A stretch of 24,000 nt of DNA from an uncultured Methanosarcinales archaeon (GCA_965231065.1 OZ246410.1:487886-511885); one strand, 5' to 3'; numbered from the stretch's first letter, positions 3,490-23,934 are shown. The notes: a model not told the origin generated them from the letters alone. Translations and numbers: made by a program.

Positions 3490-4602
3490 CTAGGATAAAT
3501 AGACCTGAGAAGCTTCTGTATCTCTTGCGACAACGATATCAAGATATCCATCGTGATTAAAGTCACCGACCGCGAGATCTTTGATGTAATTCCTGAACGG
3601 CGTGCTATACTCATTGCTTAAGGAGTATGCATCGCCTTGTTTCTGATATATCTGCAATGTCTGTTCATAATTGCCAATGAGTATCTCATCAACACCGTCG
3701 TTGTTCAGATCAGCCGCAAGCACCGCATACGTATTGCCCATACCGAATGCATCGAGGCGTTCAAATCCTGTCTCTTTATTCAGATATACTCTATTCGCTT
3801 CTTTGTTGTTTCCCTGCACAATATCTTTTCTGCCGTCACCGTCGATGTCAGAGATAGCAAGATCAGCAGTATTCGGGAGGTCATTCAGTTCAGCATTCAA
3901 TACGAATGTTTTGTCTCCTTGATTCAGATACACACGATTCGGCCGTCGTTCGATGCCAAGGACAAAATCAATCTTGCCGTCATTATTGAAGTCAGCTGCC
4001 TGTATCGCTTTCGCCGGGACGCCGCTCGAGATCTTTACTTTATTGAAATCGCCGTTGCCGTCGTTGAAATAGACATTATTATCTTTGAATGATGTCGCGA
4101 CCGCGAAATCATCATACCCATCATTATTGAAATCAGCGACTGCGATGTCTGTCACGACTGATTTCTCCAGTACTTTCGCGATTGAGAATGTGCCGTCTCC
4201 TTCGTTTCTCAGCACGAGGCTTGGTTCGTCCTTGTTGCCGAGGATGATATCTTTTTTGCCATCCTTGTTGAAGTCAATCACCGCGATTTTCTGTGTGTTG
4301 TGCTTTTCAGCAAGCAATTGTGTCTTGGTGAATGTGCCGTCTTTATTGTTGATGTAGAGATTGCTGGGTTTGTTGAAGATGCCGGCGACGATATCATCAT
4401 ACCCGTCATTATTGAAATCAGCGACTGCGACAGAATAGACGTAATCTTTTTCGAAATCAATAACAGTCGGAAAATCAATCGATTGTTTCGTGATCGTTTT
4501 CGGTTGTTGCAGTACTGGACTTTTTGCTTGTCCTGGCAGTGCAGTTTTGCATGAAACAAAGAGGATAAGAATCAGTGAAAGTGCGAGAATCTCTTTTTTC
4601 AT
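3490..4602 (-). CDS. FG-GAP repeat (7-bladed beta-propeller) lipoprotein
   Basis: Seven repeats of the Ca-binding FG-GAP core: ADFNNDGYDDIV, DFNKDGKKDIILG, ADFNNDGYDDFAV, ADFNNDGKIDFVLG, SDIDGDGRKDIVQG, ADLNNDGVDEILIG, GDFNHDGYLDIVV. The N-terminus MKKEILALSLILILFVSC has a lipobox-like LFVSC. I prefer the start at 4602 (GAGG about 9 nt upstream, TATA at 4635-4642) over the track start at 4626. Confidence 0.85.
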   Translation of the reverse strand: MKKEILALSLILILFVSCKTALPGQAKSPVLQQPKTITKQSIDFPTVIDFEKDYVYSVAVADFNNDGYDDIVAGIFNKPSNLYINNKDGTFTKTQLLAEKHNTQKIAVIDFNKDGKKDIILGNKDEPSLVLRNEGDGTFSIAKVLEKSVVTDIAVADFNNDGYDDFAVATSFKDNNVYFNDGNGDFNKVKISSGVPAKAIQAADFNNDGKIDFVLGIERRPNRVYLNQGDKTFVLNAELNDLPNTADLAISDIDGDGRKDIVQGNNKEANRVYLNKETGFERLDAFGMGNTYAVLAADLNNDGVDEILIGNYEQTLQIYQKQGDAYSLSNEYSTPFRNYIKDLAVGDFNHDGYLDIVVARDTEASQVYLS

Positions 4603-4677
4603 GTCTATTTCCTCTACTGAACGCAAGCCGTAGCTATATAAAAAGCTTATTATTCCTTCCCTGAGACACCATAATGA

Positions 4678-10400: not shown

Positions 10401-10595
10401 AATCTGCAGAAGTCAGATGAGATCAAATTACATATCGAGGCGGATGAAATGACTGCGAAAGGATTGGTCAAGTTCAAGGATATGATCGCTGAGAGATGCG
10501 GTGCTCAATCAATCGCATTTTCAGGTGAAGGTTCTATACGTGCCATTGAAGAAATAAAAGGAATCAAGATCAAAATAAGTTTTGATACTAATTGA
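7488..10595 (+). CDS. ileS: Isoleucyl-tRNA synthetase (archaeal type)
   Basis: 1035 aa. Contains GPPYTSGKVHVGTAWNK (class I HIGH region in the archaeal HxGT form), DMHGLPIEHATEKKLG (IleRS rather than the ValRS HAGIATQ), KMSKS (GRKMSKSLGN), and Zn-type CWRCHRPV. Confidence 0.95.
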   Translation: MDVGNYDFKAIEEGVLDFWKKKSIYAALKAKVKGKKSFYFLDGPPYTSGKVHVGTAWNKSLKDSFLRYKRMAGFDVWDRAGYDMHGLPIEHATEKKLGITGKDAIEKYGTDRFIEECRKLCIENMHVMNKDFERIGVWMDFQNAYQSIKPEFIEGEWWLIKRAFENNRLYEGLRTITWCANDGTALAKHELEYETVTDESIYLKFPIVGTKNEFLIVWTTTPWTIPYNLAVMVNPDVDYVKTKVENEFWIVAKALTAFIPAVAGKKYVIVEEFKGKKLEGIKYVHPFKDEITAFKDIKAPKLHTVLLSKEYVDTSAGSGLVHCAPGCGPEDYEVGHKNGLPAFNELDEHGKFKPSMGMFAGLKAKVDDRKFIDALDKKGVLIATSPVEHEYAHCWRCHRPVVFRTTKQWFFKIEDLKENMRELNKSIKWVPEYAGNRQFDSWLSNLRDNSISRQRYWGTPLPIWRCANNHFEVIGSRKELKERTGKLPDDLHSPSLQHLTMKCKECKQDMHRVPDVLDVWVDAGTVSWNCLNYPQDDKTFKRLFPADFILEGIDQVRGWFNILFVASMVALERPSYKAVYMHGFINDMQGRKMSKSLGNYILPEEVIAKYGADTFRYYTIGGTNPGLDLNYNFEDMKVSYRNLGVLWNLHKFLIDYAATVGKNPEKLRPKLDLEEKYIISKLHSTIKNITTAFDEFRLNEVPKLVEGLFLELSRTYIQLVREKSSTGTEKEKEAVLYALYEVFMTVLKLFAPVAPFITEKMYQNLREAFKLKEESIHLFDWPKFSEKDIDLELEASMDHAKNAMQAILSCREKIKRGVRWPVAEVVLVSNKEDIRLALVKTESLIASQTNVKKIRVSESFAQAKRSLKPDFSKLGPQFGKKAPTIIAKLVTMPNVAKKIEEEGKATLVIDAEKFELTKNHFTVESSLPANWVSSDFSNGSAYLNAESNKDLEIEGLARELMRKIQSMRKDSNLQKSDEIKLHIEADEMTAKGLVKFKDMIAERCGAQSIAFSGEGSIRAIEEIKGIKIKISFDTN

Positions 10596-10977
10596 TCTTT
10601 TCTGTGACGACTGAATAGCCATCCCATTGGACTGTCTTGTCGATCGGAATGCCGAACTTCACTTCTTCATCCGGCTTTATGTTCTCGATGATCTGACTGC
10701 GTTCAGTAGCGACATTTCCTGAGTAGTAGACCCGTCCTATGATCTTGACTGAACCTGCTCCTTTGCCGATGTTCTTGACTGTTCCGTTGATCGAGGCAGG
10801 GAATCTGACACCATATTGGCTGGTGATCTTGAATTCAGCCGGTAATGTGATATCAACCGTCTTTGGCTGTTCTGTATTTATTGGCCTTTGTGCTGACTGC
10901 TCCTGAACAATCTGCTTTGAAGCACATGCTGACAGTAGTAACAAGAATAGTGTCGCCAATATCCATCTCTTTTTCAT
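10588..10977 (-). CDS. Small lipobox-bearing secreted protein
   Basis: MKKRWILATLFLLLLSACASKQ has a signal peptide with LLSAC, followed by a beta-rich domain. The start at 10977 is supported by a TATA-like ATTTATTTAA about 24 nt upstream. The track start at 11022 would precede it. The 3' end overlaps ileS convergently by 8 nt. Confidence 0.6.
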   Translation of the reverse strand: MKKRWILATLFLLLLSACASKQIVQEQSAQRPINTEQPKTVDITLPAEFKITSQYGVRFPASINGTVKNIGKGAGSVKIIGRVYYSGNVATERSQIIENIKPDEEVKFGIPIDKTVQWDGYSVVTEKIN

Positions 10978-11048
10978 GGTTTTTCTGAGCTTTTGCTTGT
11001 TTAAATAAATATCTATTCTCAAGATGATAGATACTTTTAATCGAAAGC

Positions 11049-11545: not shown

Positions 11546-12699
11546 TTTACGAGCCGGAAGAAGATAGTCATCTGTTAGCTTCGTGCGTCAAACGATTCGC
11601 ATCTGGTTCTGTGCTGGATATCGGTACCGGTTCCGGGATACAATCTATCACTGCAGCTGCATTGAAGAGTGTTACGCGTGTTCTTGCGGTTGATATCTCT
11701 GATGAATCTGTTCAGTATGTCAAGAAGAGAGTTACGGGGTTAAAGAAAATAAAAGTTGTCAAGAGTGACTTATTTTCTAATGTTGCTGGTAGGTTTGATA
11801 CGATTGTGTTCAATCCACCGTACCTGCCTCTTGATGAACGAGAACCTGAAGATTCTCGTTCAATGACGACTGGCGGTAAAGTCGGATATGAATTATTGGC
11901 TCGCGCATTGTATGAGGTGAATGATCATCTGACCCGTGATGGTATCGCACTGATTGTATTCTCTTCTCTGACGAATAAAAACAAGATCGATGAGGTCTTG
12001 GACGAAATCGGCTATGATTTTGATCTTATCGCGGAGGAGAAGATCAGTTTTGAGACCTTGTATGTCTATAAACTCAAACGAAATTGGTTGTTGCATGAAT
12101 TATTTGACAAGAAGATCGCATCTATCCGAAAAGTAGCGAAGGGAAAGCGTGGATTGATATTCGCTGGTGTCCTTCAAGGAAAGAAGATCGCTGTCAAAGC
12201 GCAGCGATTGGATCTGCAGATTCGTACTATTGAAAGAGAGGCAGAGATGATCAAGAGAGTGAATAAGAAAGGTATCGCGCCTCGGTTGCTTTCAAGAGGA
12301 AAGAATTATTTCACATATGAATTCGCAGAAGGAGAATTCATCAAAGATTTTTTAGAACATAGTAAAAGACAGGAGACGAAGAAAGTATTTCTGGAAGTCT
12401 TAAGACAGTGCAGAGTGCTGGATAAGATGCATATCACCAAGAAAGAGATGGGCAATCCTTATAAGCATGTCATTGTAGGGAAGAAAATAACATTAATAGA
12501 CTTTGAACGTGCTCACTATGATGATTTTCCGCAGAACGTCACGCAGTTCTGCCAGTATATTCTTAAGAACCATGCCTTGTTTTCTCAGAAAGGGATGAGA
12601 TTTGACAAGAAGAAGCTTATCGAATTAGCGAAACATTATAAAAATAATCAGACAGAACTGAATTATAAAAGAATAAAATTATTCGTATCTGCTCTTTAA
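11542..12699 (+). CDS. Fusion protein: HemK/Mtq2-type SAM methyltransferase (N-terminal) plus atypical RIO/Bud32-like small kinase domain (C-terminal)
   Basis: The N-terminal half has YEPEEDSHLL, the SAM motif LDIGTGSGI and the catalytic NPPY (VFNPPYLP). The C-terminal half has a Gly-loop-like AKGKRGLIF, IAVK (beta3 Lys), EREAEMIKRV (alphaC Glu), hinge YEFAEGE and LIDFE (DFG-like). It has HITKKEMGNPYKH in place of HGDLxxxN. Confidence 0.75.
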   Translation: MIYEPEEDSHLLASCVKRFASGSVLDIGTGSGIQSITAAALKSVTRVLAVDISDESVQYVKKRVTGLKKIKVVKSDLFSNVAGRFDTIVFNPPYLPLDEREPEDSRSMTTGGKVGYELLARALYEVNDHLTRDGIALIVFSSLTNKNKIDEVLDEIGYDFDLIAEEKISFETLYVYKLKRNWLLHELFDKKIASIRKVAKGKRGLIFAGVLQGKKIAVKAQRLDLQIRTIEREAEMIKRVNKKGIAPRLLSRGKNYFTYEFAEGEFIKDFLEHSKRQETKKVFLEVLRQCRVLDKMHITKKEMGNPYKHVIVGKKITLIDFERAHYDDFPQNVTQFCQYILKNHALFSQKGMRFDKKKLIELAKHYKNNQTELNYKRIKLFVSAL

Positions 12700-13371
12700 C
12701 CAATCCCAGAATCGCGCGAAGATGTTCTTGGTGATGGTGTTGCCTGTTTCTTTGTTGCAGTTGTTGATCTTTGTATAAACACATTTGCCATCGATGAAGT
12801 AGTCTTTTGTGCACTTATTGTTATCGTTACATTGATTTATACATGTATGTCCGGTCGCGATCTGTCCTTCTCCGCAGACAAGCCATTGGCATATCTTGTT
12901 GGAACAGGTCTGCTGGCTGACGCATTCATCATTTGAACTGCATGCTTTACCAGGGCATCGTATGGCATACTTTATGTGATTGTAGTAGATTGTTCCCGGC
13001 CAGTTGACCGTAAGTGTGTACGTACCGGTGGTGTAGATGTTATTGGAGGTTACGAACCTGAAGGTCGCGATACCGGTAAAATCATTGCCGGTGAATTCAT
13101 TATCAGGGAAATCATAATTGGTGACCGGATCTTCGCCGATGAACCAATTTCCTAATACAGGCTGCGGCTGCATCGTATCGCTTTCTATCGTCAGATTGAT
13201 GTCAGAAAACGGCATCGATCTTCCGTTATGGGTGATGTTGAGTATCAATGAACCATTGCTGAGGCATTCGGTTCCTCTGATGCCAAGGATGATGTCATTC
13301 GTCGGAAGATAATTAGCGCTGACTGAGATGATGCTTAAGAGAAATATGATACTAAACACATATCTTTTCAT
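12679..13371 (-). CDS. Secreted protein with Cys-rich C-terminal module
   Basis: Signal peptide MKRYVFSIIFLLSIISVSA. The C-terminal third carries 13 Cys (counted by hand) in about 70 aa (CPGKACSSNDECVSQQTCSNKICQWLVCGEG...CINQCNDNNKCTKDYFIDGKC...NNC). TATA lies 22 nt upstream (13393-13400). Confidence 0.65.
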   Translation of the reverse strand: MKRYVFSIIFLLSIISVSANYLPTNDIILGIRGTECLSNGSLILNITHNGRSMPFSDINLTIESDTMQPQPVLGNWFIGEDPVTNYDFPDNEFTGNDFTGIATFRFVTSNNIYTTGTYTLTVNWPGTIYYNHIKYAIRCPGKACSSNDECVSQQTCSNKICQWLVCGEGQIATGHTCINQCNDNNKCTKDYFIDGKCVYTKINNCNKETGNTITKNIFARFWDWLKSRYE

Positions 13372-14536: not shown

Positions 14537-14565
14537 GCGGACCGTTATCAATTAAAGAATAAGAA

Positions 14566-14687
14566 CGGTGTCGCCCGGATTTGAACCGGGATATCCTCAC
14601 GGAAACCGGTTGTTTCGGCGACGAAACCTCGCAAACGAAGTTTGCCGCGTTCAAGACCGGCGCAGTACCGGGTTGTGCCACGACACC
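14566..14687 (-). tRNA. tRNA-Ser (anticodon UGA) with a roughly 38-nt intron at or near position 37/38
   Basis: Hand-folded. Acceptor GGTGTCG/CGACACC with G73, 3-bp D stem with a GG loop, and anticodon stem CCGGT...ACCGG restored only if 14612-14649 is removed. Loop CUUGAA-A. Long variable arm TTTCCGTGAGGATAT. T arm CCCGG-TTCAAAT-CCGGG. No encoded CCA. Confidence 0.8.
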
Positions 14688-14712
14688 ATTGTATTGTGGT
14701 TTAAAGCTTCCT

Positions 14713-16602: not shown

Positions 16603-17067
16603 TCATATCTGATTGAACTGGCTTCGTGTGTATTGGATCATCTGCAGTATGTACGCATACGTCTGATCGAAATTAGAAATACCCACCAGCCTCATCTTTG
16701 GTTCGATAACCAGTGTTCCGGTATTGAACAGTTTGTCGAACAACGCTTTCTTCTGCTTGATGTTCTGGATCGCGTTATACATGATATATTTTGGTTTTGG
16801 CCCTTCAATCTGGATTCGATTTGAATAGATTGCATACTGCATCTTCGATGTTTGTACATAGCTCAATAAGCCCTGTATGATGACTAATAAAAGCAATACT
16901 GAGATGATAAGAATGTTGATATTGATCGGTATCGATATCCCTAAAAGGAAGATATTGAGTGCGATACCGACATAGAATATGATCGCCAAAAAGAACGTGA
17001 TGACTAATTGAGATGCTACGATACGCATCACATTTGGTTTGATGATGTATGTCGGCAGATCAGCCAT
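16603..17067 (-). CDS. Membrane protein with bacterial-type PH (bPH_2/YdbS-like) domain
   Basis: Two N-terminal TM helices followed by YAIYSNRIQIEGPKPKYIMYNAIQNIKQKKALFDKLFNTGTLVIE, the membrane-flanked PH-like pattern. The start is set at ATG 17067 because the track ORF (to 17181) runs through tRNA-Val. Confidence 0.6.
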   Translation of the reverse strand: MADLPTYIIKPNVMRIVASQLVITFFLAIIFYVGIALNIFLLGISIPININILIISVLLLLVIIQGLLSYVQTSKMQYAIYSNRIQIEGPKPKYIMYNAIQNIKQKKALFDKLFNTGTLVIEPKMRLVGISNFDQTYAYILQMIQYTRSQFNQI

Positions 17068-17144
17068 GATTATGAAATGGACGAAGGGGATTCCCACGTC
17101 AGAACCTTCGGTTCCGACACCTCCGAGCACTGCGTGATTATGAA

Positions 17145-17217
17145 TGGACCGGAGGAGATTCGAACTCCCGACCTCAACCACGTCAAGGTTGCGTTATAGC
17201 CACTAAACTACCGGTCC
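17145..17217 (-). tRNA. tRNA-Val (anticodon GAC)
   Basis: Canonical 73-nt cloverleaf: GGACCGG-TA-GTTT-AGTGGCTA-TAAC-G-CAACC-TTGACGT-GGTTG-AGGTC-GGGAG-TTCGAAT-CTCCT-CCGGTCC-A. Confidence 0.9.
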
Positions 17218-17769: not shown

Positions 17770-20700
17770 CTAGACCCAGATCTTTCTGATTCCTAAGAAT
17801 AGTAAAAGACCAGCGACTAATGTAGCTGCTGACACACCGATACCGACCGGTACTGAAGCGTTTGGCGGCGGAGCTATCTCACCCATTACCTTGATGACAC
17901 CGTCTTTGATGCTTTCGGTGACTGGTATTGACGCTCCTGCTTTTGGTTCTTTTAATGTGAGCTTTAATTTCAATTGCGTCTGGGAATCTATATTGCTGTT
18001 GTAGATGATATCCTGCAATGAAACAGACAGTATCCTGTCCTTGATTGTGAATTCGAATGTATCATACTTGTATCCTGTTCTGATTTCATCAGTCGGACTG
18101 ATTCTCATAGTGACTTGATTTGAATCCTTCTTGACATCATCGATAACTAAGCTGTACGAAGTACCTTGGTATTCGAACATGATGGTGTCGATCCGTCTGA
18201 TGGTCTTTGTCCATGGATTCTCTGCGACATTCCATAAGTAATTGTTACTGTTGACTAAGAGAGTCTGATCTAATGTAGGTGTTGCGTCGCTTGTTATGAA
18301 TGATCCTCTGCTTGATCCGCCTGGGTTGCTTGCTGTAGCTGAAGAGACTGTGACTGATCTGCTTATGCTTGATACGAGATTAGTGCTGTCTGTTACGGTG
18401 TAGGTGACTGAATAGGTGTTTGCTGAAGTGTATGTATGGGAAGGATTCGTTGAAGTGTCAATAGGACTTCCATCACCGAAGTTCCAGCTTCGTGAGACAA
18501 TATCTGAATTCGGATCGCTTGATGCATCACTGAATGATACGTCAAGATAATTTGTATTGTAATTGAAACCAGCAACCGGTGGGTATGGAACCTGTGCAGG
18601 TCCTGTCACATTGACGCCGTTTGGTAATGTGATAGTTCCGCTTGTAAGATTTCCATTCACGATTGTCGCATTTGTCAATATCATATTTGATAATGTGGTA
18701 TTCATGACATTTGAGTTCGTTGCATTGACGTTTGTCAATGTTGAATCAGTTACTGTTGTATTGATGAGATTGCTGTTCGTGATATTTGAATTTGTTATGA
18801 CGCTTCCTGCAGTTATCGTTGAGTTACTGACTACACTTCCTGTGGTGACATTCGAATCAGTTACAGTGCTTCCGGATACTGTTGAGTCTGTTACGACTGC
18901 GTTCGTAGCATTGCTGCCGGTTACAGTAGAGCTTGTGATTGTTGATGTCATCACTGTGCTTCCATTTACTGTTGAAAGTGTTATTGAAGATCCTGAGACG
19001 TTTGAATTGTCTATTGTGTTATCTGTGACGTTAGTGTTGTTCATATTCACAGACGTAAGATTCGATCTGATTATTCTTGAGTATGTCGCGATTGAATTTT
19101 TTACATTTGAATCTGTTACATTTGAACCAGTTGTAGTGCTGTTGATCTTTGTAGATGGATCCCAGTACTCATTCAAACATGAACCATCATAGGCTGTATC
19201 AATGATGACGCAGTTGACGATAGTCGCTGCGTTTGTTATTGTTGATCTTAAGATTGTTGAGTTCGTCATGCTTATGCTGACATCTACCTGAGGAGAGTTG
19301 GTGACGGTTGATAGGTTATCAATCGCAACACTTGTCACGTCAGTAGATATATTTGATGGGAAGTATATTCCGTTGATTGTTGAGTTTAAGATGTTGAAAA
19401 CTGACGGTATTCCCGGATTCGCAGCTGTCGTGAATGTCAATGTTCCTGCAGTCGCGCAGTTGTTGCTGCCGTCGCATGAAGTGACATTGAAATTATACAA
19501 TGTATTTGCTGCGAGATTTACGAGCATGATTGAATGATTGAATACGTATGAACTGTCATTCTGGAATGTTCCCAGTGCTGAAGTCAGTCCGTAGTTTACC
19601 GTTGAATTCGCTGATTCATCAGTAGTCCAATTGATCGTTGCTGTTGAATTGGTGAAGTTGACAACCTGTATGTTTGAAATAGCAGGGGCAGTGACATCAT
19701 TGTTCTGCAATGTAGTCTGCGCATTTGTGATTGTGGTTGCGTTTACATTATTCGATGTGTCGAATGTCTGTACGCCGATGGTGTACAATGTGTTGTTTGT
19801 CAATCCTGATGCAGTGTATGAAGTATCGACTGCAGTGAGATTTACGACATTGACGCCATTGATGAATATGATTGTTCCGTTGAAGTCTACATTGACTGGA
19901 TTGATCCAGTTCCATGTGATTGATTGATTTGTTATTCCTGTTGCACTCAAGCTCGTGATGGTCGCTGGTGCTGTGGTGTCAGGTGGTACGATGCTGTTCG
20001 ATATTCCTTGTGTGCAGGTCTGGAATGTCCAGTCTGCTGGTGTATTGGTATCGACGCCATTTGGCATTCGTGCCTGGCAGTTATTGCTTGAAACAGATTC
20101 AGCTAATGTCGGTGTTTGATCGATTAGATTTGAATTATTGTCGTACAATGTTACGAATTCTCCTGCATTGTTTAAATTGATGACATTCGCTACATAGTAG
20201 CCATTTGCAGCAAGTATTGTGCTTGCAGGTACAGTGTGTCTTAATGTCGGTGAAGCGAGTCCATCCCATATCTGCCATCCGCTGATATCGACAGCAAATG
20301 CATTTGGATTGTATAATTCGACCCATTCGCTTCCTGCGACCGGGTTCTGTTCGAATTCATTTACGAGGATTGTGTTGATGACTGGTGCCGCATTGACTGT
20401 GATTGTCTGTAGCGTTGAATTGATGCTGCCATCTGAATCTGTCACAGACAGATTGACAGTATATGTTCCTGCGACTGCGTATGAGTGTGAAGTGACATTC
20501 TGTGTCACATAATCAATGACACCATCGTTATCCATGTCCCAGTTCCATGCGACGATTGAGTCAGGGAATGATGTTGAAAGATCAGTGAAATTGATTGGAT
20601 CATTTACCAAGACTGTTGTTGCTGAAGCTGAGAAATTCGCAGCAGGAGCAAGATCGTTTACGGTGATTGTGCTTGTTGAGATATTTGTGCTTCCATCGTC

Positions 20701-21996
20701 ATCAGTCACGGTAAGACTTACAGTGTACACGCCGTTGCTCATGTATGTGTGAGTAGGATTCTGTGTGGTATCCAATGGAGAACTGTCTCCGAAGTCCCAT
20801 GACCATGAGACGATCAGATCAGGGAATGATGTTGATGCGTCAGTAAATGTTACTGACTGTCCTTCATTGATTGTATTCGCTGATTGTGTAAAGCTTGAGA
20901 TAGGAGATAGATCGTTTACAGTAACTGAACTTGTAGTTGTATTAGTGCTGCCGTCATCATCGGTGACTGTTAATGTGACTGTATATGTTCCATTATCTAG
21001 ATATTGATGTGTCGGATTCTGAGTCGTTGCGGTGTTTCCATCGCCAAAGTCCCAGTTCCAAGCGACAAGTAAATCAGGAGCTGAGACAGATGTATCGGTG
21101 AAGACAACTGACTGCCCTTCATTTATGACTGCAAGATTTTGTGTGAAGCTTGCTGTCGGAGCAAGATCATTGACTGTGATTGTCTGTATGCTTGAATTTA
21201 CAGAACCATCATTGTCAGTGACTGATAGATTGATTGTGTATGTACCATTATCTAGGTATGTGTGAGTAGGATTCTGAACTGTGTAATCGATTGTTCCATC
21301 GTTATCGATGTCCCAATTCCATGCGACGATCGGATCGTAGCTTGTTGATGCGTCAGTCAGTGTTACTGCGACACCTTCATTCACTGGATTCGCTGAGATT
21401 CCAAAATTTGAGACTGGTGTTTGGTCGCCGATGACTGCTGTTGTCATCGCTGTTGCTGATGCGCCATAGGCGTCAGTCGCTGTCAATGATACGTTATACG
21501 TGCCATTCTGTGCGTAGAGATGAGTAGGATTCTGTATGTTTGCGGTATTGGTATCACCGAAGTTCCATGCGTATGAACTTATTGCGTCATTATCGATGTT
21601 GTCGACTGCAGTACCGGTGAATGCTACATTGGTTATTCCTTCGATGCCTGCGTATGGTCCATTTGCATTGACCGTAGGTGGTGCGTTCTGGATTGTGACT
21701 GTTGATTGTCCAAGAAGTACTGTTCCGGTGAATGCGTTTGGTGGCATGAACATCTTACATGTCCACGTGTCGAAATGTGTGGTTGCTGAATTAGGAATAC
21801 TATTAGATGTATATGACTTCTGTGCACCGTTCTGGAACCATTGATACAGATATGCATTTGCGTTTCCGCCGTTGCTGCAGACTAGATTCTGATCAGATAA
21901 TGGTGCTGAAGGTGCTATACTGACTGCTGCGAAAGCACTGACGCTAGATGTGAGTAAGAACAATACACTTAGTATTGCGATTAGTTTTGATTTCAT
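17770..21996 (-). CDS. Giant multi-domain cell-surface protein (PKD x6, lamin-tail domain, FN3 x2, pentapeptide-like beta-helix, C-terminal TM anchor)
   Basis: 1408 aa. Signal peptide MKSKLIAILSVLFLLTSSVSAFA. PKD signatures WNFGDG/WNWDFGDG...NPTH.Y...G.YTV.LTVTD.DGS occur at about aa 106-536 (five tandem) and 1136-1218. An LTD-like segment INTILVNEFEQNPVAGSEWVELYNPNAFAVDISGWQI spans aa 537-665. Two FN3-like modules span aa 672-858. An S/T/N-rich 5-residue periodic region spans aa 905-1125. The C-terminus is PVGIGVSAATLVAGLLLFLGIRKIWV. Confidence 0.9.
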   Translation of the reverse strand: MKSKLIAILSVLFLLTSSVSAFAAVSIAPSAPLSDQNLVCSNGGNANAYLYQWFQNGAQKSYTSNSIPNSATTHFDTWTCKMFMPPNAFTGTVLLGQSTVTIQNAPPTVNANGPYAGIEGITNVAFTGTAVDNIDNDAISSYAWNFGDTNTANIQNPTHLYAQNGTYNVSLTATDAYGASATAMTTAVIGDQTPVSNFGISANPVNEGVAVTLTDASTSYDPIVAWNWDIDNDGTIDYTVQNPTHTYLDNGTYTINLSVTDNDGSVNSSIQTITVNDLAPTASFTQNLAVINEGQSVVFTDTSVSAPDLLVAWNWDFGDGNTATTQNPTHQYLDNGTYTVTLTVTDDDGSTNTTTSSVTVNDLSPISSFTQSANTINEGQSVTFTDASTSFPDLIVSWSWDFGDSSPLDTTQNPTHTYMSNGVYTVSLTVTDDDGSTNISTSTITVNDLAPAANFSASATTVLVNDPINFTDLSTSFPDSIVAWNWDMDNDGVIDYVTQNVTSHSYAVAGTYTVNLSVTDSDGSINSTLQTITVNAAPVINTILVNEFEQNPVAGSEWVELYNPNAFAVDISGWQIWDGLASPTLRHTVPASTILAANGYYVANVINLNNAGEFVTLYDNNSNLIDQTPTLAESVSSNNCQARMPNGVDTNTPADWTFQTCTQGISNSIVPPDTTAPATITSLSATGITNQSITWNWINPVNVDFNGTIIFINGVNVVNLTAVDTSYTASGLTNNTLYTIGVQTFDTSNNVNATTITNAQTTLQNNDVTAPAISNIQVVNFTNSTATINWTTDESANSTVNYGLTSALGTFQNDSSYVFNHSIMLVNLAANTLYNFNVTSCDGSNNCATAGTLTFTTAANPGIPSVFNILNSTINGIYFPSNISTDVTSVAIDNLSTVTNSPQVDVSISMTNSTILRSTITNAATIVNCVIIDTAYDGSCLNEYWDPSTKINSTTTGSNVTDSNVKNSIATYSRIIRSNLTSVNMNNTNVTDNTIDNSNVSGSSITLSTVNGSTVMTSTITSSTVTGSNATNAVVTDSTVSGSTVTDSNVTTGSVVSNSTITAGSVITNSNITNSNLINTTVTDSTLTNVNATNSNVMNTTLSNMILTNATIVNGNLTSGTITLPNGVNVTGPAQVPYPPVAGFNYNTNYLDVSFSDASSDPNSDIVSRSWNFGDGSPIDTSTNPSHTYTSANTYSVTYTVTDSTNLVSSISRSVTVSSATASNPGGSSRGSFITSDATPTLDQTLLVNSNNYLWNVAENPWTKTIRRIDTIMFEYQGTSYSLVIDDVKKDSNQVTMRISPTDEIRTGYKYDTFEFTIKDRILSVSLQDIIYNSNIDSQTQLKLKLTLKEPKAGASIPVTESIKDGVIKVMGEIAPPPNASVPVGIGVSAATLVAGLLLFLGIRKIWV
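18622..19284 (-). repeat. Pentapeptide-like repeat region (about 40 units) inside the giant protein
   Basis: A strict 5-residue period is visible in TLSTV/NGSTV/MTSTI/TSSTV/TGSNA/TNAVV/TDSTV/SGSTV/TDSNV/TTGSV...NVNAT/NSNVM/NTTLS/NMILT/NATIV/NGNLT, with an aliphatic residue every fifth position. Confidence 0.6.
20389..21681 (-). repeat. Five tandem PKD-domain repeats (about 85 aa, or 255 nt, each)
   Basis: The units have recurring boundaries (NDLAP/NDLSP...TVNDL). Units 3 and 4 are about 70 percent identical by eye. Units 2 and 5 share a DNDG(T/V)IDY insertion. Confidence 0.8.
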
Positions 21997-23216
21997 TGAG
22001 TTTTAGCTTCTGGTGTTGGAGCAGCCGGTGTTGAGTCACGCACTGTGCCTCCTGATCGTGGACCTGTACGTGCCGAAATTTCTTTCTTCTTTCCATTTCC
22101 AAAGATGTGACTGAAATTTATTGTCGCGCCGCCATAGATGGTGTGTTCATGTAATGCTGATGTATTTGAAACGCCTGAAAGCATCATTTCATATCCAATC
22201 AATGGGCTGATATCTGATCCGATCTTTCCTTTGAGCTGTTTCTTTGCCTCAAGACTAAATCTTGTGTAATCTGTCTCATATTCAGAGCCAGTGCTGTCAG
22301 TGACCATCTCGCCGATGTTTTCCAAAGAAGCTTCAAATTGCAATGCAGGTACGTATACCTTTGCAGTCAATGAGAAATTTTCTCTCTTGAAATCGTTTGT
22401 GATTCCGTACGGAGCTATATCTGATGTGCCGAATACTTTGCCGATCTTCGCTTCGAGCTCGAGTGCGTTATTGAGTGTATATTCAACAGTGAATTCGTAT
22501 CCTTTTCCGCTGTCGCTCTTGGTGATATCAATGATGTCATATTTGATGTCTGCATTTCTGCCGAACATCTTGAATCCGCCTGCAAGGCTTACGAGATGAG
22601 CAAGATTCTTTGCTTTGATCACTTTTCCATAGCCAAGGCTGAATGCAAGATCAGTGATTGAACCTTTTGTTGATCCATTTTCCTGGTCTGCAAGATAATT
22701 TGTCAAGCTTGTTGGCTGTATCTTTGCATCGACACGCAGGAATTGTTTCTGTTTCTTTGAATCGAGACCAAGCTCGAGTTCTGTATTAAGATTAAGTTGT
22801 GATCCTTTAGAAGCGAAATCGACGACATCCGTGCCGATATCTGTCTGAGAACCGGTGCTATATGATCCGAATGTTGCATCCTGTTCAAGGATAAGGTAAG
22901 GTTTGATATTTGATGTGATGGTGTTTCCATCCGCATCGACTTTTGGTACTTTGACTTTCTTTACTTTCGGAGCTTTTACTTTCTTTGCTTTGGTCTTTGT
23001 TATTTGTTCAGATATTGCTCGATCCTGTGCTTGCTCAAGAGTTGTTTTATCTGCGTTGATTGTATTAGAAGTTGCTTCTACAACAGGGGCTGTTGCATTG
23101 ACTGGTGCTGCTTGCGTAGCTGGTCCATCTTCAGGATTGAGAATTACTTGTGCGTATGTGTTGCTTGCTGCTAATGCAGCGATTCCAAAAAGTGCATTTC
23201 TTAGTTTACTGTTCAT
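21993..23216 (-). CDS. Secreted beta-rich protein with a porin-like amphipathic strand pattern; first gene of the surface-protein operon
   Basis: 407 aa. Signal peptide MNSKLRNALFGIAALAASNTYAQ, a Pro/Ala/Thr linker, and the Lys-rich KKVKAPKVKKVKVPKV. About 12-13 segments have alternating hydrophobic residues (LNLNTELELGLD, YEFTVEYTLNNALELEAKIGKVF, FSLTAKVYVPALQFEASLENI, YGGATINFSHIF). The GGGGG SD lies 7 nt upstream. The stop overlaps the next ATG (ATGA at 21993-21996). Confidence 0.8.
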   Translation of the reverse strand: MNSKLRNALFGIAALAASNTYAQVILNPEDGPATQAAPVNATAPVVEATSNTINADKTTLEQAQDRAISEQITKTKAKKVKAPKVKKVKVPKVDADGNTITSNIKPYLILEQDATFGSYSTGSQTDIGTDVVDFASKGSQLNLNTELELGLDSKKQKQFLRVDAKIQPTSLTNYLADQENGSTKGSITDLAFSLGYGKVIKAKNLAHLVSLAGGFKMFGRNADIKYDIIDITKSDSGKGYEFTVEYTLNNALELEAKIGKVFGTSDIAPYGITNDFKRENFSLTAKVYVPALQFEASLENIGEMVTDSTGSEYETDYTRFSLEAKKQLKGKIGSDISPLIGYEMMLSGVSNTSALHEHTIYGGATINFSHIFGNGKKKEISARTGPRSGGTVRDSTPAAPTPEAKTQ

Positions 23217-23742: not shown

Positions 23743-23815
23743 AGCCCTCGGTGGGATGTGCGCCCACGACCTGCTGCTTACTAGGCAGCCGCTATAGCTA
23801 CTAAGCCACGAGGGC
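23743..23815 (-). tRNA. Non-canonical tRNA, Thr-like (anticodon AGU)
   Basis: 73 nt: GCCCTCG-TG-GCTT-AGTAGCTA-TAGC-G-GCTGC-CTAGTAA-GCAGC-AGGTC-GTGGG-CGCACAT-CCCAC-CGAGGGC-T. The acceptor (7 bp), anticodon (5 bp) and T (5 bp) stems are perfect. U33 and A37 are present and the discriminator is U73. The D loop lacks GG and the T loop lacks the TTC/A58 consensus. Confidence 0.6.
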
Positions 23816-23822
23816 AATTGGA

Positions 23823-23906
23823 TGCGGGAGGCAGGACTCGAACCTGCGAAGACACTAAGTCAAAGGCTCTTAAGGCCTTCGCATTTGACCACTTTGCTAC
23901 TCCCGC
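23823..23906 (-). tRNA. tRNA-Leu (anticodon UAA)
   Basis: 84-nt class II cloverleaf: GCGGGAG...AAGGC-CTTAAGA-GCCTT, variable arm TGACTTAGTGTCTTC, T arm GCAGG-TTCGAGT-CCTGC, A73. It ends 7 nt upstream of the next tRNA. Confidence 0.9.
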
Positions 23907-23934
23907 AAAGCTAACAGAGTGAGTTTATACGTCT

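Follow-up and report, generated by a model that had tools for sequence, protein, structure and literature searches.

Transmembrane β-barrels of the outer-membrane protein (OMP) type count as a defining trait of diderm bacteria and of the organelles that descend from them, and to our knowledge archaeal envelopes have been described as devoid of such barrels. Does an archaeon encode one, and what would it do there? The question is raised by a gene in a 24,000-nucleotide stretch of DNA from an uncultured archaeon (GCA_965231065.1 OZ246410.1:487886-511885; hereafter the window, with positions counted from its first letter). A sequence-only reading of the window had described the product of this gene as transmembrane-β-barrel-like and had left three options for it: a pore-former acting in a partner or host membrane, a lateral acquisition from bacteria, or the sign of an unrecognised outer layer. 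Structure prediction, sequence relatives and gene neighbourhood lead us to a predicted protein that is very probably exported by the Sec pathway and whose core would be a monomeric 12-stranded barrel of the outer-membrane (OM) type, with an apolar belt, a charged and net-acidic lumen, a polar crown and flexible flanking tethers. The same high confidence extends to this identity taken jointly with the statement that the family was previously undescribed and is restricted to Woesearchaeales-type DPANN archaea.

The barrel gene and the parts of its product are arranged as follows.

21993..23216, (-) strand: barrel protein gene (P0001), 407 aa, from the list of open reading frames (ORFs); first gene of a two-gene unit.
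23151..23216, (-) strand: Sec-type signal peptide, aa 1-22, read from the sequence; predicted cleavage after T-Y-A, with aa 3-18 modelled as a helix by AlphaFold2.
22905..23150, (-) strand: disordered N-terminal linker, aa 23-104, about 80 aa, rich in Lys and Pro; predicted local distance difference test (pLDDT) score <50.
22101..22904, (-) strand: predicted 12-stranded antiparallel β-barrel domain, aa 105-372, 268 aa, from AlphaFold2, Foldseek and the analysis of strand faces.
21996..22100, (-) strand: disordered basic Pro/Thr-rich C-terminal tail, aa 373-407, 35 aa; pLDDT <50.

An identical copy of the barrel protein is found on three contigs. Its translation contains all the sequence features quoted in the sequence-only reading, and positions 22101-22904 correspond exactly to aa 105-372. 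The signal peptide, MNSKLRNALFGIAALAASNTYA, is followed by Gln and shows an n-region with Lys/Arg, a hydrophobic core and the T-Y-A motif. The Lys-rich KVKxPKV repeat, KTKAKKVKAPKVKKVKVPKV, occupies aa 74-93 (22938-22997), directly ahead of strand 1. Within the domain, the alternating stretches LNLNTELELGLD, YEFTVEYTL, FSLTAKVYV and LQFEASLENI are all present, and the alternation exceeds chance. Indeed, 42 nine-residue windows have a period-2 hydrophobic moment >2.0, compared to 10.4 +/- 5.9 in 2000 shuffles of the same residues, none of which reached 42 (maximum 36), indicating that the amphipathicity exceeds an effect of composition. The last strand, YGGATINFSHIF, resembles a β-signal (G-x-x-hydrophobic-x-aromatic) and ends in ...ATINFSHIF at F372. 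This aromatic residue is not the very last one of the protein, as it is followed by the 35-residue basic, Pro-rich tail (7 Lys/Arg and 5 Pro) that had been considered unusual for an OMP.

To define the family, phmmer was run against 1.84 billion representative proteins. This search returned 13 matches, about nine of which are true homologues (25-38% identity across the whole domain), the remainder being repeat-protein noise, and the family amounts to about 10 clusters among these representatives. None of the phmmer matches is a bacterial relative. A protein scan of 185,579 GTDB species genomes (one genome per species) found no relative, and neither did searches of IMG/VR and GenBank phages; on the latter result a viral origin of the barrel gene was rejected. 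Queries of the PDB sequences with either the protein or the family profile had no match, nor did a comparison of the protein with NCBIfam. A word-indexed search started from the single protein and from two alignments retrieved essentially the query and one further member each time, a poor yield because of the low-complexity tails and the divergence of the family. In Pfam, only OM-barrel families were matched, all below threshold: OMP_b-brl (PF13505) by three of the ten members at E<=1 (best E 1.4e-5; 19.1-20.2 bits for the window protein, below the gathering cut-off of 28.7), ShlB (PF03865) by two (17.7-18.9 versus 22.7 bits) and CopB by one. A literature search found no published description of the family. 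A 21-nm 'barrel-like' envelope structure reported from cryo-electron tomography of a Micrarchaeon (bioRxiv 10.1101/2024.05.20.594898) was set aside because it is an object of a different scale and has no gene link.

True homologues share a common architecture made of a signal peptide, a Pro/Thr/Ala/Lys-rich linker of variable length at the equivalent place in all of them, the barrel, and a PT-rich and K-rich tail. Equivalent signal peptides, ending in SYA, AYA or ALA, occur in all full-length members, and tails of 30-90 aa follow the barrel in nine of the ten. Judging from these alignments, a tail beyond the terminal aromatic residue is a feature of the barrel family and no oddity of the window gene. 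We also observed that three members (P0004, P0010 and P0013, from loci L063, L068 and L057) have, ahead of the linker and within the N-terminal 40-130 aa, an additional conserved domain of about 90 aa with the pattern KPxIGxIxVKP...FAAYDP...DGKxKxDRxTQRYTLP; this domain is absent from the window protein.

AlphaFold2 was run with the 10-sequence alignment on the full-length protein and on the domain alone. In the full-length model, residues 105-368 form 12 long antiparallel strands joined by turns of 2-4 residues, and disorder is predicted for 100 residues at the N-terminus and 35 at the C-terminus. The domain alone was modelled as 12 meander strands of 14-25 residues with a mean pLDDT of 91 and a predicted template modelling score (pTM) of 0.81. 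A soluble sandwich or propeller would have spoken against the barrel proposed from the sequence; neither fold was seen in the models, which have long meander strands instead. Furthermore, a Foldseek search of the PDB gave 242 matches at E<1e-3, and the best 50 of these 242 are all bacterial outer-membrane barrels. The best matches include Pla/OmpT, FadL, Hbp, BrkA, AIDA-I, NalP, EspP, CymA, OpcA and porins. The top matches in BFVD, a library of viral structures, are likewise barrels of the outer-membrane type.

We then mapped the DSSP strands onto the alignment of the barrel family and compared the two faces of each strand. In the window protein, the hydrophobic phase comprises 64 positions, about five alternating positions per strand, of which 86% carry an apolar, an aromatic or a Gly residue and 3% a charged one. 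In contrast, 35% of the positions in the opposite phase are charged, with a net acidic balance (10 Glu and 2 Asp versus 5 Lys and 1 Arg). The same columns in the nine homologues contain 2-5% charged residues, compared to 27-38% in the opposite phase, and the apolar belt at alternate positions facing a charged phase is kept in all ten members. Its apolar band adjoins the side of the termini and short turns in 12 of the 12 strands, next to the turns between strands 2-3, 4-5, 6-7, 8-9 and 10-11 and to both termini. On the side opposite the termini, each strand is extended by 7-12 mostly polar residues, about 10 on average, which together form what we call the crown. Like OM barrels, the protein as predicted combines a signal peptide (read from the sequence), short turns on the side of the termini and extensions on the other side. 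These models, the class of the Foldseek matches and the conserved apolar belt opposite a charged face all support the transmembrane-β-barrel-like character proposed earlier.

With the standard barrel geometry for n = 12, the radius would be about 11 Å and the overall height about 50 Å, with a belt measuring about 22-25 Å (about 9-10 residues) and a crown of about 25 Å. The best-conserved motifs of the family (GSKTxQGTNVVD, GLGYGR, KYDIxxITKxDxASG, YT and LSG) are all located in the crown, suggesting that the crown is the functional surface of the barrel. Residues H207, Y246, T318 and G348 are invariant in the family. An N-x-S/T sequon (aa 351-353; 22158-22166, (-) strand) lies in the crown within the hairpin of strands 11 and 12 and is kept in six of the ten members. 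If glycosylated, it would constrain the side of a membrane that is available to the crown.

The strongest functional clue is the pairing of the barrel gene with a giant adhesin gene, which was absent from the sequence-only reading. The features of this partner gene are as follows.

17770..21996, (-) strand: partner gene encoding a giant surface protein of 1408 aa, from Pfam matches, the junction sequence and orthologues.
21673..21927, (-) strand: conserved Ig-like domain at the distal, N-terminal end of the partner (about aa 24-108), with invariant Cys...Trp...Trp-x-Cys.
17773..17853, (-) strand: C-terminal transmembrane anchor of the partner, VPVGIGVSAATLVAGLLLFLGIRKIWV, read from the sequence.

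The start of the partner gene overlaps the stop of the barrel gene by 4 nt (ATGA), and the barrel gene is probably translationally coupled to it. When the contigs of all ten family members were considered, a large gene on the same strand was found directly downstream of the barrel gene in 10 of 10 loci, with a gap of 1-5 nt or a 4-nt overlap. At the N-terminus of each of the ten partners, a signal peptide is followed by a conserved domain of about 85 aa. The alignment of this tip (n = 10) has a mean column identity of 57%, with I, P, L, C, G, W, W and C invariant, and five of the ten tips give weak Ig_2 matches (best E 3e-4). In the window, the partner consists of the signal peptide and Ig-like tip, six PKD domains, a lamin-tail domain (LTD), two fn3 domains, Asn/Ser/Thr-rich repeats, a further PKD domain, a conserved C-terminal module and the transmembrane anchor. 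The three complete partners (1408-1532 aa) share the order of PKD repeats, lamin-tail domain, fn3, Asn/Ser/Thr-rich region, C-terminal module of about 150 aa and transmembrane helix, the latter being nearly identical in the complete partners of loci L059 and L065. The Asn/Ser/Thr-rich region of the window partner (about aa 900-1115; 18650-19300, (-) strand) is made of degenerate short repeats (NSTITNS, SNVTDS) with a weak pentapeptide-repeat match; it is probably a β-helix stalk and is very rich in N-glycosylation sequons.

Is the barrel gene truly archaeal? Its contig also carries genes for TFB, a family-B DNA polymerase, ribosomal protein L10e and IleRS, the latter 50-60% identical to that of Woesearchaeota/Nanoarchaeia metagenome-assembled genomes. 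A tRNA-Ser(UGA) with a 38-nt intron (14565-14688, (-) strand) was missed by ARAGORN with default settings and found by Rfam and by the ARAGORN intron mode; this intron-bearing tRNA speaks for an archaeal origin of the contig and, with the genes above, bears out the archaeal context noticed earlier. The comparison of base composition and codon usage with flanking genes, which the sequence-only reading had suggested, gave a G+C content of 0.42 and a codon-usage correlation of 0.75 with the rest of the window, within the range of the neighbours. Furthermore, a syntenic locus from a second lineage (L059) has exosome, proteasome, Rpp14 and RpoK genes upstream of the barrel-adhesin pair; downstream of it lie, just as in the window, the genes for the small membrane protein, the AI-2E transporter and TFB. 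The barrel gene is thus embedded between archaeal hallmark genes in both places, which speaks against an assignment of the region to a bacterial genome. Because of the archaeal genes on the contig, the native G+C content and codon usage, and the 4-nt overlap with the next gene, contamination or recent transfer is very unlikely. The barrel gene is native and archaeal, and synteny and pairing together indicate that the barrel and adhesin genes are an ancient, obligate unit in this archaeal clade.

What would such a unit do? We tentatively favor a role of the barrel protein as the membrane-inserting partner of a host-contact apparatus, along the lines of the partner- or host-membrane action suggested earlier; taken together with the predicted structure, this reading has in our estimate a probability of roughly 0.45. 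The barrel would be co-translated with the downstream giant PKD/LTD protein, which would be anchored in the archaeon's own membrane by its C-terminal helix, its Ig-like tip reaching tens of nanometres outward. Since a continuous apolar belt cannot stay soluble, the barrel would reside in a bilayer outside the archaeon's own cytoplasmic membrane, or in an equivalent apolar environment. This bilayer would most likely be the envelope of a host or partner cell, a plausible site for a monoderm episymbiont. Linked to the archaeon through its basic tails, the adhesin or both, the barrel could act as a membrane-embedded anchor and/or a small hydrophilic channel, probably cation-selective, of a cell-cell contact apparatus through which a metabolically dependent episymbiont would gain physical and solute access to its host.

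Several points weigh against this reading. TM-scores to solved barrels are only 0.35-0.52, which means that the fold class is clear while a close structural relative is lacking. We infer the closure of the barrel from topology, the high pTM and the class of the Foldseek matches, and the pore size and belt thickness from secondary structure and that same match class. One-dimensional alternation alone cannot separate a lipid-facing belt from a buried core, and the 'outward' phase of the strands was picked by hydrophobicity, the outward direction being deduced from that choice. Moreover, we know of no BAM/Omp85 insertion machinery in archaea, and for the barrel to insert spontaneously from outside, six polar hairpins would have to traverse the bilayer, a passage against which the crown sequon, if glycosylated, would argue further. 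Finally, the part of the adhesin in host contact is itself deduced from its domains.

It seems unlikely to us that these Woesearchaeales themselves possess an outer membrane or outer lipid layer that has gone unrecognised and in which the barrel acts like a bacterial OMP, as in the third option of the sequence-only reading. In that case the barrel could serve as a porin, or as a tether of the OmpA or OmpM kind whose basic tails bind the inner envelope; alternatively, the adhesin could pass through the outer membrane or be anchored there by means of the barrel, as in a split autotransporter. The topology is exactly OMP-like in this respect, with long conserved loops facing away from the side of both termini and the short turns, and with a β-signal-like last strand; the flexible tails on what would be the 'periplasmic' side resemble tethers between outer membrane and wall, and a barrel gene followed by a gene for an Ig-like-repeat protein mimics the inverse autotransporters. 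A possible PopA-like relative of the barrel has also been mentioned for diderm Altiarchaeales (PMC12228718). However, an outer membrane needs many barrels as well as machinery for lipid and protein transport, whereas the barrel family counts just about 10 clusters worldwide and no other OMP-like protein was seen in the 24-kb window or in the 21-kb syntenic locus. In addition, a partner with its own signal peptide and C-terminal transmembrane anchor is the standard surface display of a monoderm archaeon, and no report of diderm Woesearchaeota was found in the literature searched.

We consider it quite improbable that the protein is a secreted barrel or sandwich that never enters a membrane, its apolar face being buried by oligomerisation, by a lipid or other hydrophobic ligand, or by packing against the giant protein, for instance to scavenge host lipids or to serve as a structural component of the surface layer of the cell. 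The alternation would fit a buried apolar face equally well, the lipid transporter FadL is among the top Foldseek matches, and the conserved crown sequon suggests an exposed, glycosylated surface. DPANN archaea are generally devoid of lipid synthesis, which would suit a scavenger. Nevertheless, the models predict with high confidence twelve meander strands of about 20 residues, and the best 50 of the 242 PDB matches are transmembrane barrels with no sandwich, lipocalin or jelly-roll among them. By its geometry, the lumen of a 12-stranded barrel would be too wide for a packed hydrophobic core, and the apolar band has a constant height next to the turns instead of spanning the full length of the strands. 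An ordinary bacterial OMP gene, brought in by a binning or assembly artefact or by recent lateral transfer, is hardly credible. Although the fold class is otherwise bacterial or organellar and the weak Pfam signals are to OMP_b-brl and ShlB, the contig places the gene between TFB and tRNAs and in overlap with the next gene, the same pair recurs in syntenic archaeal loci of other lineages, and the composition of the gene, the lack of a bacterial homologue in the phmmer search and the lack of any match in the GTDB and viral searches described above disfavor the recent acquisition from bacteria that had been offered as an option.

Several other features of the window were noted. A listed ORF of 192 aa (16603-17181, (-) strand) overlaps a tRNA-Val (17145-17217, (-) strand); translation probably starts at an internal Met (MADLPTYIIKPN...), and the product would then be a membrane protein of about 155-165 aa. 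L059, and probably L065, has a conserved counterpart of this protein at the equivalent position, with the giant adhesin on one side and the AI-2E transporter on the other. A tRNA-Thr (23743-23815, (-) strand) has an anticodon called as AGU (A34) and a T-loop of CGCACAT versus the usual TTCRANT, both unusual for an archaeal tRNA, and sits 3 nt from a tRNA-Leu(UAA) at 23819-23907. The window is rich in surface proteins. Two adjacent ORFs of 192 and 177 aa without Pfam match (1557-2135 and 2350-2883, (+) strand) begin with N-termini resembling class III signal peptides (type IV pilin/archaellin type) followed by one hydrophobic helix, and may encode pilins. An FG-GAP protein with a seven-repeat β-propeller (3490-4626, (-) strand) and the product of a 144-aa ORF (10588-11022, (-) strand) have signal peptides with lipobox-like ends (...VSC and ...SAC for the pair), and both may be archaeal lipoproteins. 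A secreted ORF product of 230 aa (12679-13371, (-) strand) has a Cys-rich C-terminal half with a weak EB-module match, and its gene overlaps the end of a convergent methyltransferase gene by about 20 nt.

A conserved barrel family that is native to archaea and strictly paired with a giant adhesin gene is a concrete, clonable candidate for the connection between DPANN cells and their partners and for resource uptake, and its 268-aa domain is small enough for refolding, conductance and structural work. It raises the questions of how a barrel folds without BAM and whether some DPANN lineages possess an unrecognised outer lipid layer. A bolder proposal, which we place on the unlikely side, is that Woesearchaeales build OM-type barrels without known Omp85 machinery, either in an outer layer of their own, as diderm DPANN, or in the host membrane as a conduit, the OMP architecture having arisen or been retained independently in Archaea within a symbiosis apparatus of barrel and giant adhesin. 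If true, OMP architecture would not be confined to Bacteria and organelles.

Compared to known systems, the predicted barrel domain would look and work most like the 12-stranded barrels of type V secretion. The barrels of type Va autotransporters (Hbp 3AEH, BrkA 3QQ2, AIDA-I 4MEE, NalP 1UYN and EspP 2QOM) are likewise monomeric, 12-stranded and about 270 residues long; they gave the best full-length superpositions (TM-score 0.44-0.48, root-mean-square deviation (rmsd) 7-8.5 Å over about 270 columns) and, like the archaeal barrel, go together with a large, repetitive surface protein or adhesin. However, the archaeal protein matches the autotransporter family neither by sequence nor in Pfam (PF03797), no α-helix is predicted in its pore, its N-terminal 80 aa are disordered, and instead of a fused passenger its giant partner is a separate product that brings a signal peptide and a membrane anchor of its own. 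In the inverse autotransporters (type Ve, intimin/invasin), too, the barrel precedes the Ig-like adhesin and has 12 strands, and a flexible or periplasmic extension lies N-terminal to it. In contrast, two ORFs separated by a stop codon are found in all 10 archaeal loci, no IAT_beta or LysM match was obtained, and the archaeal adhesin is anchored by a C-terminal transmembrane helix and not threaded through the barrel. Two-partner secretion (type Vb, TpsB/FhaC and TpsA) also pairs a barrel gene with that of a giant exoprotein, and PF03865 ShlB/FhaC is, together with PF13505 OMP_b-brl, the sole family with any sequence signal, with scores below the curated cut-offs; yet the archaeal barrel has 12 strands versus 16 and no POTRA domain, and its partner has no TPS domain.

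Outside type V secretion, omptins (Pla/OmpT) and OpcA gave the lowest Foldseek E-values (1.4e-8) and share the 'extended barrel' whose strands rise above the membrane as a functional crown, but they have 10 strands versus 12 and superpose poorly (rmsd 12-17 Å). An omptin-like protease role is not supported, as catalytic Asp/Asp and Asp/His pairs were not identifiable and none is conserved. A FadL-like lipid transporter was rejected, since FadL has 14 strands and an N-terminal hatch and gave TM-scores of 0.3-0.4. Tethers between outer membrane and wall such as OmpA and OmpM/SlpA likewise combine a barrel with an extended region on the side of the termini that is able to tie layers, whereas the archaeal protein has no OmpA_C, SLH or coiled-coil domain and its tails are of low complexity (Lys/Pro/Thr). 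β-barrel pore-forming toxins differ in that a complete 12-stranded barrel is predicted here within one chain, and none of their structures is among the top Foldseek matches. Since the barrel protein fails the tests that define each of the type V systems above, we regard it as representing a new family. Its fold class is known, the domain of life in which it occurs is unexpected, and its arrangement with the partner is new.

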